From an uncultured Candidatus Saccharibacteria bacterium (lineage in GTDB: Bacteria > Patescibacteriota > UBA1384 > CAYGGE01): a DNA stretch of 64,000 nucleotides. The stretch's first letter is position 1. Every line of letters starts with the position of its first letter. Under the pieces are notes generated by a model that saw only the letters and a program-made list of their open reading frames with translations, was not told where the DNA came from and searched no databases. The position numbers were made by a program, and so were the translations under genes. Below are positions 4,527-28,298 of the stretch, in pieces. The DNA lies in contig CAYGGE010000001.1 of assembly GCA_964349485.1 (NCBI GenBank), forward strand, positions 142,212 through 206,211, given 5' to 3'.

Positions 4527-5072
4527 CTATTTGTTCAGCTCAAAGATCGTACTGCCCAGAAAGTCCCAAGCTAATCGGTTTTGATCAACTGTTCTATCGT
4601 GCTGTTTGCTTGAAAGGGTGATTACATAACTAGTCTGTTCGTGTAGGTTGCGTAGGCCATAGCAGACGCCTCTGGGAATTAGGAGTGCTTGAGTTTGGCC
4701 TGCTCCAAGGACTATTCGGTTGGTTTGGCCTTTGGTTGCCGAGGCGTCGCGGCTGTCGTGAAAGATGGCTAAAAGACGGTTTGAAGGTGGTACGAACCAA
4801 ACATCTTCACGATCCAGATTTAGCCCAAATGCGTCGATGGCCTGAGGTAGGAGTTCGGTAAAGCTAATTTGGGCAACTTGCATGGTCGGCAGCCAATCGT
4901 GCTGGCCCTCACTAAGACGAGCTACTTCGATAGCCATCGCGTTGTCAGAGAGTTGGCTGGGAAGTTTGATAAATTCAAGTCCCTCGATGGTCGATTCCAT
5001 ACGCTCATCGATCTTAGCTAGTTTGTCGCGTACCTCATTTGTGAGATCGGCTGTTGATAGCGTTGCTTTCAT
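4527..5072 (-). CDS. RmlC-like cupin (dTDP-sugar 3,5-epimerase / ketoisomerase family)
   Basis: C-terminal LLIPRGVCYGL...YVITL...AWD resembles the RmlC motif IPxGxAHGF...Y...WND. GAAGGGA RBS lies 5' of the ATG. Confidence 0.5.
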   Translation of the reverse strand: MKATLSTADLTNEVRDKLAKIDERMESTIEGLEFIKLPSQLSDNAMAIEVARLSEGQHDWLPTMQVAQISFTELLPQAIDAFGLNLDREDVWFVPPSNRLLAIFHDSRDASATKGQTNRIVLGAGQTQALLIPRGVCYGLRNLHEQTSYVITLSSKQHDRTVDQNRLAWDFLGSTIFELNK

Positions 5073-5199
5073 TGGGTCCCTTCTTTACTATCATAACAGT
5101 CTGAACCTCATGAGACAACGACATAAGTTAAAACATGTTACAATTACTTTTAGCAGTCAACAGCTACTAATTTACAGATCTAAACGATTATTTTTCTTT

Positions 5200-6381
5200 A
5201 TGTTCTTATTCCTAACCAAATTTAAGTCTATTATCCCAATTATTATCTTAGCTATTCTCGGTCTAGTCGCTGGAGGTATTTTTGGGGTTAAGAGCCGTCA
5301 ACAAACGAAGGTTATCTCCAACGTAAGCGCTGGCCCTTCAACTACTGCAGTTGTGCCAACTTCGACGCCTAGGGGACCAATCGTTCACAAGGTGTCTTCA
5401 CCCATGCCAAGAATTAATGCTCAGCCTGTAGCAAGGGTGACTTTAACACCAAGGGCGCCTGTACTTACCAGAAACGGGCCAGTTAATTGGGGGGTAACAA
5501 TTCGTCCATATCTTACCCCGGACCAGGGTTTTAATCGGGCGTTCCTGCCCAAACAGTTCGTACTCATGAAAGAGCTCGGAGTGACCAGCGTTCGAGCTGA
5601 CTATGACTTCACTCATGTCGACATGAATGATCTGATCGTGGCGCAAGCCAGACAACACAAGATGCAACTTATTTTCATCTTGCCAATGGATCAAAACCAG
5701 CTCGCGACGGACAAAAACCTGTCCAGTAATGTCTATAGGCAAGTCTATGACGTAGTAAAAAAGTATAAAGGTCAAGTCGCAGTATGGCAACTTGGTACTG
5801 AAGTCGCGACTGTGGCCATGAAAAAACCGGATATGAATGGTATCGAATTTACAGATTATCCTGAGGAGACTTATCGACCGGTCGCAACCTGGATACAAGC
5901 GGCTTCACGGGCGACGATCGATGCTGATCCGAGAGCCAAACGGCTTCTCAATGATCAATGGATTCATGCTGGATTCTTCAAGAAATTTCTCGCCGAAGGT
6001 GGTCAGTTCGATATTTTAGGTTGGAATTGGTTCTCCGATATGGGTGGCCCTGAGAGGATCGAAGAATTGCACATCAATGATGATCCGAATCGGCCTTTTC
6101 GACTGATGGATACTCTTAAGAGCTATAACAAAGAACTATGGTTTGCCGAAGTAAACCGTCGCGATGGTGATAGTGATGGCAACCCCGAGGCGCAAGCAGA
6201 TTTCATCGCTTCAATTGCACAGTACGCTAACGCCAACCAGCGGGTGAGTACATTTTTGGTCTTTCTATTGATAGGCGAAGCTGGTTACGGCATTGCCGAT
6301 GCTAATTATCAGGGTGGAACTGTATCCGGCGTCAAAAAGGCTTTTACTCGGTATCAACAGATCATTGACCAGTCCCGCTAG
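5200..6381 (+). CDS. Signal-anchored secreted protein with a possible clan GH-A (GH5/GH113-like) TIM-barrel glycoside hydrolase domain
   Basis: The track ORF 4882-6381 overlaps the convergent RmlC-like gene on the other strand and its ATG at 5072; first non-overlapping in-frame ATG is 5110; the real start is taken as the ATG at 5200 (MFLFLTKFKSIIPIIILAILGLVAGG, a signal anchor). WQLGTEV and LWFAEVN are candidate acid/base and nucleophile Glu motifs. The family is uncertain. Confidence 0.35.
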   Translation: MFLFLTKFKSIIPIIILAILGLVAGGIFGVKSRQQTKVISNVSAGPSTTAVVPTSTPRGPIVHKVSSPMPRINAQPVARVTLTPRAPVLTRNGPVNWGVTIRPYLTPDQGFNRAFLPKQFVLMKELGVTSVRADYDFTHVDMNDLIVAQARQHKMQLIFILPMDQNQLATDKNLSSNVYRQVYDVVKKYKGQVAVWQLGTEVATVAMKKPDMNGIEFTDYPEETYRPVATWIQAASRATIDADPRAKRLLNDQWIHAGFFKKFLAEGGQFDILGWNWFSDMGGPERIEELHINDDPNRPFRLMDTLKSYNKELWFAEVNRRDGDSDGNPEAQADFIASIAQYANANQRVSTFLVFLLIGEAGYGIADANYQGGTVSGVKKAFTRYQQIIDQSR

Positions 6382-6392
6382 GGTTATGCGAC

Positions 6393-6421
6393 TTGACAAT
6401 ACTAGCGTTTCCTGGTATTAT
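6393..6421 (+). promoter_or_regulatory. Sigma70-type promoter (TTGACA-17-TATTAT) driving the rnj leader
   Basis: Exact TTGACA at 6393-6398, a 17-nt spacer and TATTAT at 6416-6421. A leader of about 255 nt then runs to the rnj ATG. Confidence 0.5.
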
Positions 6422-6682
6422 AAACAAAGTAAATCGATACATTGTTCTCAAAGTTCTCAACTTGATTAATTCCTATCCCCGATAATTTTTTTTGTACTCT
6501 ATGCGAAATTCCCTTACCGTTAAACGATCTTACATGCGATGGCAATCAAAATCATGTATTGCGCTTGTAGCGATGAGTCTTTTACTATAAAAAATCGAAT
6601 AATATTCAACTCTGTTCTCGAAAAGAACAATTTGCGTTGCGCTTTGATCTAACTTTAACGCAACGTCAACGAAAGGAAACAC

Positions 6683-8887
6683 ATGGCAGACACTCCATCT
6701 GCAAACCCAATCAAAAAGCCGGCTAGTCCCCGAACTGTGCCAGAAAAAACTGCGCCAGTAGAAAAGACTAAAGCCCAAATCGCGACCGATTTTACTCGGT
6801 CAAGCTCCTCGTCAATCGGTGGACGCCGACGACCAACAGCTGATCGAACCGACCGACCGGTCAAACCAGCCATTCCTCGTGCCGGAACGGTCAAGGAAGT
6901 CAGTCGACAAGGCCGAGGCGAGCATATCCAACCGATTACCACCTCGACCTTTGAGGTACCCAAAGAAAAAATGAATGAGCGAACTGCCCATAAAGAACAG
7001 ACCAAAGCTCATCAGGAAGGTGAGACCTTAGTCTTTGAAAAAATCCAAGCTAAAAGTACTCCCGCGTCAATTCGGGCCCGTCGCGATTCGGCGTCTCGTC
7101 ACGATCGCGACGACCGGCGCGATGCGACTCCAGCCCACTTTGCAATGTCCATGAAAGATATGGAAGATACTAGCCGCAATACGCCAGCAACCATGCCCAA
7201 AACTGCCAAAGTTTTGAGTAAAGGGAAAACTGGCTCACTGCGAATCATTCCTTTAGGTGGTCTTGGTGAGATTGGCAAAAATATCATGGCCTACGAAACT
7301 GATAACGATATCATCGTCATCGATGCTGGCATGACTTTCCCTGACGAAACAATGCCAGGGATCGACCTAGTCTTACCTGACATTACCTATCTGACCGAAA
7401 ATCGTAAAAAAGTTCGCGCGTTGGTCATCACCCATGCACATGAAGATCATATCGGAGCAGTACCTTACGTTTGGCCCAAGCTCGGTTGTCCAATCTATGC
7501 TTCGGACCTGACTGCTGGTTTAATCCGGATCAAGATGGAAGAACACGGTCACAATGATGTGCCGATGCATATTCTGAAGTCTGGTGACCGAGTTCGTTTA
7601 GGTGACTTCGAAGTTGAACCGGTGCGAGTCACCCATTCAATTCCCGATGCCTTCGGTTTTGCGATTCGTACGCCGATTGGTCTAATTGCTCACTTTACAG
7701 ACTGGAAGATAGATCACACGCCAATCTCAGGCGAACCATTCGACTTTGTTCGGGTAGCTGAGCTCTCGCGAGAGGGTGTAAAACTGTTCTTGTCAGAGTC
7801 AACTAACGTGGAAACACCTGGTTATACAGTCAGTGAATCAATCCTCTCTGACACTTTCGATAATATCTTCAAAAACTCCAAGGGTCGAATTATCTTCACA
7901 ACCTTCGCTTCCATGATTAACCGGATTCAACAGGCCCTCGACGCCTCGGTGAAGCATGGCCGAAAAGTGGCTATCTCCGGACGAAGTCTTGAGAAATATA
8001 TTGAAGAGGCGATGAAACTTGGCTTCTTGAAAGTTCCCCAAGGCACCATGATCGATATTCGATCGGCAACCCGAACCCCTGACCATCAAATTGTCTACCT
8101 GACAACGGGGAGTCAGGGCGAGGAATATTCAGCCCTATCGCGTATTTCATCGGGCGAACATCGCCACATTCAAGTCAAGCGTGGTGACACGGTGGTTATC
8201 TCAGCTTCGATCATCCCTGGTAATGAATCGAGTGTCTTTGAAGTGGTGAACAACCTCTACAAGCAAGGTGCCCAAGTTATCTACGGCCGCCAAGTCGACA
8301 TCCACGTTTCTGGTCACGCCAACGAGGAAGAATTGAAGATGTTGATGGCCATGATGAAGCCGGAGTATTTCCTGCCAATTCACGGTGAGTTTCGTCACTT
8401 AGTTAAGCACGGCCGTATGGCTGAGAGACTGGGTGTCGACCCTAATAAGATCTTTATCTTAGAAAACGGTGGTGTCTTGCAGTTTGACGAAAACGGCGTT
8501 GGATCTGTCAGTCCTGAACGAGTTCAAGCTGGCCAAGTACTAGTCGACGGTCTTGGCGTCGGTGACGTTGGCAACATTGTGCTGCGTGACCGCCAAGCCA
8601 TGGCTAAAGACGGCATCTTTGTCGTCATCTTAACTGTCGATAAACAGTCTGGTGCCTTGGTCTCGAGCCCTGATATTATCTCCCGTGGCTTTGTCTACAT
8701 GCGAGCGGCTGAAGACTTGATTCATAAGTCGCGTCAAGAAATCAAACGAATGTTTGCCAAGCACAATGGCCGTTACCCCATGAACTACGACTATATCCGC
8801 CGCATGATCCGCGACGAATTGGGCGAATACCTCTTCGAATTCACCCAACGCCGACCGATGGTCATCCCGGTCGTTATTGAAGTCTAG
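6683..8887 (+). CDS. rnj: Ribonuclease J (metallo-beta-lactamase/beta-CASP) with an N-terminal low-complexity extension of about 185 aa
   Basis: LRIIPLGGLGEIGKNIMAYE...HAHEDHIGAVPYVW (HxHxDH) is followed by beta-CASP and C-terminal domains. AAAGGAAA RBS lies upstream of ATG 6683. The first ~185 residues are rich in R/D/T/P/K and lack a globular signature. Confidence 0.9.
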   Translation: MADTPSANPIKKPASPRTVPEKTAPVEKTKAQIATDFTRSSSSSIGGRRRPTADRTDRPVKPAIPRAGTVKEVSRQGRGEHIQPITTSTFEVPKEKMNERTAHKEQTKAHQEGETLVFEKIQAKSTPASIRARRDSASRHDRDDRRDATPAHFAMSMKDMEDTSRNTPATMPKTAKVLSKGKTGSLRIIPLGGLGEIGKNIMAYETDNDIIVIDAGMTFPDETMPGIDLVLPDITYLTENRKKVRALVITHAHEDHIGAVPYVWPKLGCPIYASDLTAGLIRIKMEEHGHNDVPMHILKSGDRVRLGDFEVEPVRVTHSIPDAFGFAIRTPIGLIAHFTDWKIDHTPISGEPFDFVRVAELSREGVKLFLSESTNVETPGYTVSESILSDTFDNIFKNSKGRIIFTTFASMINRIQQALDASVKHGRKVAISGRSLEKYIEEAMKLGFLKVPQGTMIDIRSATRTPDHQIVYLTTGSQGEEYSALSRISSGEHRHIQVKRGDTVVISASIIPGNESSVFEVVNNLYKQGAQVIYGRQVDIHVSGHANEEELKMLMAMMKPEYFLPIHGEFRHLVKHGRMAERLGVDPNKIFILENGGVLQFDENGVGSVSPERVQAGQVLVDGLGVGDVGNIVLRDRQAMAKDGIFVVILTVDKQSGALVSSPDIISRGFVYMRAAEDLIHKSRQEIKRMFAKHNGRYPMNYDYIRRMIRDELGEYLFEFTQRRPMVIPVVIEV

Positions 8888-8955
8888 ATTCAAAACTTGG
8901 AATATCAAAAAGCACCCACTTGTTCGGGTGCTTTTTGATGTTAGCTTTGAAGAGA

Positions 8956-10573: not shown

Positions 10574-10649
10574 CGGGGCGTAGCTCAGTGGTTAGAGCAA
10601 ACGGCTTATATCCGTTCGGTCGCCGGTTCGAATCCAGCCGCCCCGACCA
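10574..10649 (+). tRNA. tRNA-Ile with the unusual anticodon UAU; 76 nt, CCA encoded
   Basis: Manual cloverleaf: acceptor CGGGGCG/CGCCCCG, D-arm GCTC-AGTGGTTA-GAGC, anticodon stem AACGG/CCGTT, loop CTTATAT (U33, anticodon TAT at 10607-10609, A37), T-arm GCCGG-TTCGAAT-CCAGC, discriminator A, CCA. Confidence 0.75.
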
Positions 10650-26189: not shown

Positions 26190-26265
26190 TGGCGCGCTTG
26201 GAGGGAGTTGAACCCCCGACCTACTGCTCCGCAAGCAGTCGCTCTATCCACTGAGCTACAAGCGC
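26190..26265 (-). tRNA. tRNA-Arg, anticodon GCG by manual fold; 76 nt, CCA encoded
   Basis: The reverse complement folds as acceptor GCGCTTG/CAAGCGC, D-arm GCTC-AGTGGATA-GAGC (A20), anticodon stem ACTGC/GCAGT, loop TTGCGGA, T-arm GGGGG-TTCAACT-CCCTC, discriminator G, CCA. Confidence 0.7.

Positions 26266-28210: not shown

Positions 28211-28298
<88 letters not shown>

Follow-up and report, generated by a model that had tools for sequence, protein, structure and literature searches.

The 64,000-nucleotide stretch of DNA analysed here (the window; GenBank assembly GCA_964349485.1, contig CAYGGE010000001.1, positions 142,212 to 206,211 of the forward strand) comes from an uncultured Candidatus Saccharibacteria bacterium and carries a gene for RNase J, rnj, at positions 6683–8887 (+). 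The explanation that we favour, with moderate confidence, is that this enzyme begins with a translated, disordered, net-basic and clade-specific tail in which four constrained motifs are set and which would act as a tether, and that rnj is expressed from a conserved promoter through a leader that is not a conserved folded RNA. An earlier reading of the letters alone (the sequence-only reading) had described both the extension and a structured 5′ leader.

An RNase J core preceded by a long N-terminal extension

The open reading frame (ORF) at 6683–8887 has 734 codons. Its ATG at 6683 is preceded by the Shine-Dalgarno (S-D) sequence AAAGGAAA at 6672–6679 (+), and we conclude that this is the RNase J gene and that it starts at this ATG. 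The catalytic core, made up of metallo-β-lactamase, β-CASP and C-terminal domains and followed by the stop codon, occupies 7238–8887 (+; residues 186–734), with the sequence LRIIPLGG beginning at residue 186 (nt 7238). The distance of about 185 codons between a well-placed ATG and the core is thus as the sequence-only reading had it.

RNase J models matched residues 187–734 only. TIGR00649 matched residues 187–731 with a score of 602 bits (cutoff 400); the J1-specific model NF047419 scored 657 bits, under its cutoff of 820, and the protein is therefore not assigned to the J1 subtype. The Pfam domains of the core follow one another in the order Lactamase_B (PF00753), RNase_J_b_CASP (PF22505), RMMBL (PF07521) and RNase_J_C (PF17770). 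The closest relatives in the PDB are 3zq4 (E = 2e-157), 6k6s and 8cgl, with alignment confined to residues 178–734; the solved relatives are the RNase J1 or RNase J of Bacillus, Staphylococcus, Streptomyces, Thermus and Helicobacter. In an alignment of 26 sequences D214, H251, H253, D255, H256, H318, D340, H545 and H567 are invariant, the HxHxDH motif being H251-A-H253-E-D255-H256, and we take D214, H251–H256, H318, D340, H545 and H567 to be the metal-binding and catalytic residues of motifs 1–4 and A–C. AlphaFold2 (AF2) gave a confident model of the core.

The extension is constrained as protein

A database search returned one identical protein and 21 clusters at 74–84% identity, 719–828 amino acids in length. 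All 22 of these close homologues carry an N-terminal extension of 170–280 residues, and its frame remains open in every one despite many indels; we looked for a stop codon inside the extension among the orthologues and found none. M1 is nearly invariant among homologues. An S-D-like AAGG, AGGA or GGAG motif lies 9–16 nt 5′ of the start in 9/9 orthologues examined, and in the same nine no internal Met is preceded by a properly spaced S-D. These observations agree with the earlier assignment of the start to the upstream ATG rather than to the internal Met before LRIIPLGG.

We calculated Nei–Gojobori distances between the window and the DNA of eight orthologues. The proportion of synonymous differences (pS) was 0.66–0.83 in both extension and core, indicating that synonymous sites are saturated. 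The proportion of nonsynonymous differences (pN) was 0.04–0.09 in the core. Within the extension, four conserved islands had a pN of 0.19–0.29 and a pN/pS of 0.25–0.37; the linkers between them had a pN of 0.43–0.58 and a pN/pS of 0.65–0.82, a ratio that is approximate given the uncertain alignment of the linkers. For the whole extension pN/pS was 0.42–0.54, again with pS saturated, and for residues 1–148, which lie 5′ of every internal Met, it was 0.46–0.61. We conclude from these comparisons that the extension is under purifying selection at the protein level, and is more than a chance open frame.

Four motifs in a predicted disordered region

The extension (residues 1–185; 6683–7237, +) is predicted to be intrinsically disordered and has a net charge of +14; no Pfam domain was found in it. 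Island 1 (residues 26–45; 6758–6817, +; consensus EKSRxxIAxDFxRSxSSS) is kept in 20/22 homologues and missing in P0021 and P0022. Island 2 (residues 59–93; 6857–6961, +; consensus KPAxPRATTAKDLxxxxRGEQPQPIxTxxFxxP) has the invariant residues P65, R66, A67, T69, G79, Q83, I85, T87 and P93. Island 3 (residues 107–120; 7001–7042, +; consensus TRAxQEGDTLVFEK), in which L116 and F118 are invariant, is predicted to form a β-hairpin. Island 4 (residues 149–185; 7127–7237, +; consensus PHFAMSMKDMEDTxxNTPAT...KVLxKGKTGK), with H152, F153, A154, S156, M157, M160 and A169 invariant, runs into the core. Islands 2 and 4 are present even in P0022, the most divergent member. Low-complexity linkers of variable length separate the islands, and one linker segment has an R/D pattern (window, RRDSASRHDRDDRRD; relatives, YRDNR...RD).

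Prediction supported the disorder that the sequence-only reading had proposed. In an AF2 model of the full-length protein, residues 1–183 had a predicted local distance difference test score (pLDDT) of 31–52. Modelled alone, the extension had a predicted template modelling score (pTM) of 0.16 and a pLDDT of 50–84, with local elements at the islands only: helices at residues 30–39, 70–75 and 157–161, and a β-hairpin at 106–121 (strands 106–112 and 115–121). The Island 3 block reached a pLDDT of 84 in this model, and helix 157–161 was seen in the full-length model as well. Consistent with disorder, the hydropathy of the extension (0.376) lies below the Uversky boundary of 0.440, and order-promoting residues make up 12% of the extension versus 33% of the core. 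We conclude that the extension is a predicted disordered region with short linear motifs. The strings RRRP, DRTDRP and RHDRDDRRD picked out by the sequence-only reading are all present, and its description of the segment as low-complexity and highly charged fits the linkers and the fraction of charged residues (0.32; net charge is +12 to +21 in all orthologues); the segment is not uniform, however, since it contains four conserved short motifs.

The tail belongs to one rare clade

A profile of the extension, run by local hmmsearch, matched exactly P0001–P0022 among the 120 best RNase J hits, which bears out the earlier proposal that the extension is lineage-specific. Against 1.84 billion cluster representatives the same profile had no matches, in an exhaustive search in which the clade's own members were hidden under 50% cluster representatives that do not have the tail. 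No chain was matched among PDB sequences at E ≤ 10, full-length H. pylori RNase J (8cgl, 705 amino acids) included, and there was no match in the remainder of the window. A word-indexed homologue search with the extension alignment returned nothing, probably because low-complexity words swamped its 8000 candidates. Scans of genome and metagenome contigs added only three further loci, and we conclude that the clade bearing the extension is rare. Homologue P0022 and locus L001 are recorded as Candidatus Berkelbacteria (Patescibacteria), to which we assign the window's rnj as well, and the bin of L002 is labelled Saccharibacteria; in the databases searched, the extension is limited to one Berkelbacteria subclade.

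Unrelated N-terminal tails are common among the other nearest relatives. About 45 of about 98 have basic, R/K/P/Q/N/S-rich tails of 40–165 amino acids; these tailed relatives are 47–62% identical in the core, and those with a name are assigned to Patescibacteria or Berkelbacteria. Disordered tails at the N-terminus of RNase J therefore seem to recur in this part of the tree, and few are as long or as rich in motifs as that of the window's clade. The sequence-only reading had called such a segment not typical of RNase J. This is true of the model enzymes; it does not extend to H. pylori, with its N-extension of 132 amino acids, or to the tailed relatives. Tails among P0023–P0104 have sub-lineage motifs, for example IDISDAGxVLxPK, RPPKKKMQQxAETPGI and PPSNERTF, and P0048 has a C-terminal tail instead of an N-terminal one. 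Our literature search found, in the library that it covered, no paper on RNase J tails in Patescibacteria.

A possible role for the tail

We propose that the tail would be a flexible tether, in which the basic and R/D-patterned linkers may bind RNA or promote self-association. The four motifs may fold on binding and so dock, for instance, a helicase, further decay enzymes, the ribosome or the tetramer of the enzyme itself. RNase J might so gain the role of a hub, as RNase E does from its disordered C-terminal half, and as has likewise been proposed for the H. pylori N-extension. We put the chances at about even that the tail serves as such a flexible RNA- and partner-binding appendage.

Several points weigh against this proposal. 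Translation of the tail is read from sequence comparison, in which the linker ratios are approximate as noted above, and binding of RNA and partners by it is what we infer. AF2 docks no island onto the core, in a monomer model with a shallow alignment of 26 sequences that may miss docking. No gene for an RNA-decay partner lies nearby, the neighbours being envelope and polysaccharide genes. In addition, the H. pylori N-extension is dispensable for binding of the RhpA helicase, such that a scaffold role is not assured by analogy (PMC3592473). A candidate that we rejected is the Island 1 helix as a membrane anchor: judged by eye, it is weakly amphipathic and has no hydrophobic stretch.

The same H. 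pylori study bears on a reading in which the tail acts in cis, one or more of its islands docking on the enzyme's own catalytic or C-terminal domains or on a neighbouring protomer and tuning activity, substrate access or the dimer–tetramer equilibrium, without recruitment. The H. pylori N-extension is required for full activity in vitro, and its deletion sharply cuts that activity and leaves helicase binding unaffected (PMC3592473). Action in cis would also suit the continuity of Island 4 with the first core strand, the greater age of Islands 2 and 4 than of the other two, and the location of local helix and hairpin propensity at the islands. However, the pLDDT of the tail is lower in the full-length model, a monomer, than when the tail is modelled alone, and thus no docked pose is predicted. 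We regard action in cis as a credible but rather unlikely account of the tail.

There is only a slight chance, in our judgement, that the tail is for the most part a low-complexity expansion that is near-neutral, tolerated and without a specific function. Patescibacteria RNase J N-termini often have expansions of this sort; the linkers do evolve almost neutrally, tail length ranges from 170 to 280 amino acids, and the unrelated tails of related lineages differ greatly in length. An expansion of this kind does not account for four islands with invariant residues at a distance where synonymous sites are saturated, nor for a net positive charge kept in every orthologue. Least probable is that the extension is an annotation artefact, with translation beginning at M155, M157 or M160 and the upstream 150 codons forming an untranslated leader: three ATG codons do fall within the conserved HFAMSMKDMED motif, around where typical RNase J proteins begin, but we consider an internal start very unlikely because the frame is open in all homologues, S-D sequences precede the upstream starts only, and residues 1–148 and the islands show coding constraint.

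A conserved promoter and a leader left by loss of udg

A σ70-type promoter at 6393–6421 (+), made up of TTGACA, a 17-nt spacer bearing an extended TG, and TATTAT, matches 11/12 consensus positions. All 11 aligned related loci show the pattern TTGACA(a)-17-TAnnnT without variation, and it is present too in L012 and L014. Conservation in 13 related loci is above chance, and on this phylogenetic footprint we conclude that the rnj promoter predicted by the sequence-only reading is real. The predicted 5′ leader of about 255 nt (6428–6682, +; 34% G+C) is not globally structured. Only the promoter indicates where transcription begins, which counts against our explanation.

The length of this leader appears to reflect the history of a neighbouring gene. 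In 8/14 related loci udg, encoding a family-4 uracil-DNA glycosylase, lies between the promoter and rnj (L004, L006, L007, L008, L010, L011, L013 and the outgroup L012), leaving 0–148 nt before rnj; in the outgroup, udg overlaps the start of rnj. The udg-less loci are the window, L003 (same protein as L001), L005, L009, L002 and L014, with 204–267 nt from the -10 hexamer to the rnj ATG (261 nt in the window). The presence of udg in this position in sister lineages and the outgroup indicates that the udg–rnj operon is ancestral and that the long leader of the window is therefore derived. We conclude that the window leader is, on present comparisons, most simply a udg-less remnant of a promoter–udg–rnj arrangement, the window lineage having lost udg. 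No udg was found in the 64-kb window, and a tblastn search for udg remnants in the udg-less leaders gave a best E of 0.28. In a neighbour-joining tree the loci that lack udg are scattered, but with its short internal branches the tree is compatible with a single loss of udg as well as with repeated losses. Where udg is present it starts without an S-D, after a U/CU-rich tract, in 6/7 loci (L004, L006, L007, L008, L010, L011, L012), and the S-D of rnj is always strong. The L008 udg gene call, with a GTG start, probably omits about 35 nt of the gene.

The leader is not a globally structured RNA

The sequence-only reading had called the leader structured. The minimum free energy (MFE) of a 273-nt leader is -43.5 kcal/mol, and that of shuffled sequences is -43.6 ± 4.6 kcal/mol (z = 0.02). 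An Rfam search of the leader at E ≤ 1 gave no match, and RNAalifold found 0 consensus pairs in six udg-less leaders. A globally structured leader is not supported by these results, and this part of the earlier description falls.

Local hairpins are present. A small one, TGTTCT-CGAAA-AGAACA, lies at 6613–6629 (+; -3.7 kcal/mol) and has an equivalent, TGTTC...GAACA, in L003. The hairpin that the earlier reading had seen just before the ribosome binding site is also there, at 6634–6665 (+), with arms GCGTTGCG (6634–6641) and CGCAACG (6659–6665); the segment 6632–6669 folds at -11.0 kcal/mol. L003, L005 and L006 have a hairpin at this position with different stem sequences, and in L004, L007 and L008 a hairpin takes in the S-D. 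Local z-scores are modest (-0.9 to -3.2), that for positions -75 to +15 of the window being -0.95, and an analysis of covariation would need more sequences. The pre-S-D hairpin could act as a roadblock to a 5′ exonuclease or as a processing site.

In E. coli, conserved stem-loops of the rne leader mediate feedback. By comparison, the 5′ untranslated region (UTR) of rnj might form a structured RNA that lets RNase J regulate its own mRNA. We consider this improbable. In its favour are a long leader after a conserved promoter, the two local hairpins, conserved boxes of the GTWCTC type (described below) and a published proposal of feedback via the 5′ UTR in H. pylori rnj (PMC5874925). However, stability no greater than that of shuffles, the lack of an Rfam match and the lack of a consensus structure among the six udg-less leaders all argue against autoregulation of this kind. 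The S-D is unpaired in the MFE fold, and 8/14 related loci do not have the long leader at all, because udg fills the space. The account that we prefer is accordingly that of a conserved promoter followed by a leader that is not a conserved fold.

Recurrent boxes in the leader

Short sequence boxes recur in the leader. Box A, CATTGTTCTCA (6440–6450), is followed by a second GTTCTCA (6453–6459), the two together spanning 6440–6459 (+), about 19–38 nt after the -10 hexamer. With the consensus yTWrGnTCTCw, Box A is found in the same place, 22–30 nt after the -10 hexamer, in 11 aligned loci and in L012 and L014; it was not found behind other promoter-like sites of the window. Box B, TTTTGTACTCT-ATG at 6490–6503 (+; consensus TTTTgTaCTCT-ATG), is the S-D-less start context of udg in udg-bearing loci. 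In the window it opens a putative upstream ORF (uORF) of 29 codons, without an S-D, at 6501–6590 (+). All five udg-less loci tested have a uORF of 29–36 codons at this place, with unrelated peptides; the chance of each uORF length is 0.10–0.21, and the product of the per-locus probabilities is 8e-5. GTTCT recurs at most 70 nt from the rnj ATG.

These recurrent boxes suggest a shared cis-element. The G/A-T-T/A-C-T-C boxes (6440–6459, 6490–6503 and 6613–6619) are kept in 13 related loci with saturated synonymous sites, and sit after the promoter, before the ATG of udg or the uORF, and near the rnj ribosome binding site. A general start context of TCTC before ATG was rejected as their cause, 1/32 window genes having it. 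Enrichment of GATCT before the rnj S-D was not significant after correction for 452 tests.

A broader and tentative proposal, which we think has an outside chance of being right, is that RNase J in genome-reduced bacteria of the candidate phyla radiation (CPR), whose ribonuclease set is RNase J, RNase III and PNPase only, has convergently evolved a disordered N-terminal scaffold, that the four motifs of the Berkelbacteria clade would be docking sites for assembly of an RNase J-based degradosome or a ribosome-associated complex, and that the repeated GTWCTC boxes of the udg/rnj leader would be cis-sites of feedback by the enzyme or a partner on its own operon.

Neighbourhood of rnj

Downstream of rnj, between it and the convergent ykuD gene, which encodes an L,D-transpeptidase, lies a strong hairpin (8901–8942; -25.5 kcal/mol) with A- and T-runs at its flanks (AAAAAGCACCC...GGGTGCTTTTT). 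It is likely to be a bidirectional terminator; a consensus terminator scan did not list it. The rnj–ykuD synteny is retained in most related loci, and in L009 a tandem array of TTAACAA heptamers (7190–7562) lies downstream of the ykuD gene.

Upstream of rnj is a 499-codon ORF (4882–6381, +) with no Pfam match, the first ~60 codons of which overlap an ORF on the other strand (4527–5072, -). Translation of this ORF probably begins at a later codon, ahead of a hydrophobic segment, and its C-terminus is common to the gene upstream of rnj in L003. The window also has tRNA genes for Ile-TAT (10574–10649), Arg-GCG (26190–26265) and Ser-TGA (28213–28298); bacteria seldom encode a tRNA-Ile whose anticodon is TAT in the genome.

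Comparison with known systems

Of all ribonuclease genes, only rnj, rnc and pnp are kept by at least 90% of CPR genomes (PMC12641178). The nearest parallel to the window enzyme is H. pylori RNase J (PDB 7PCR, 8CGL), which likewise has a β-CASP core after a lineage-specific, predicted-disordered N-extension of more than 100 amino acids, and which is likewise the principal decay nuclease of an organism without RNase E. The H. pylori extension, of 132 amino acids, is genus-specific, predicted to be disordered and unresolved in cryo-electron microscopy (PMC3592473, PMC10700544). In contrast, the window tail has 185 amino acids (170–280 in the clade) and four conserved motifs between hypervariable linkers. 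We detected no sequence similarity between the two extensions, which therefore have independent origins and are a case of convergence. The tails of other RNase J proteins of the Patescibacteria type resemble that of the window in their N-terminal position and R/K/P/Q/N/S-rich low complexity; unlike it, they are 40–165 amino acids long, have motifs of their own (IDISDAGxV, RPPKKKMQQ) and do not match the extension profile.

With respect to the leader, the 5′ UTR of E. coli rne is similar in that it, too, is long and precedes a gene that encodes the main decay RNase. The window leader differs in having no detectable conserved structure and in being missing from most sister lineages. A long 5′ leader can thus come about when a cistron upstream is lost, with no need for selection of a riboregulator, and the leader left by loss of udg is a caution for calls of "structured leaders" made from sequence only.

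The C-terminal scaffold of RNase E, as in the degradosomes of E. coli and Caulobacter and in BR-bodies, is like the window tail a long, disordered, charged appendage on the main mRNA-decay nuclease. Both have conserved microdomains between fast-evolving linkers, and both have Arg-rich or charge-patterned segments. RNase E is, however, an S1/5′-sensor enzyme with its appendage at the C-terminus, whereas the window protein is a metallo-β-lactamase RNase J with its appendage at the N-terminus, and the tail has no clear amphipathic membrane anchor. A disordered tail with conserved motifs would make this the second independent RNase J, after that of Helicobacter, with an appendage of the RNase E hub type, and its four motifs offer concrete, mutable handles for finding partners.

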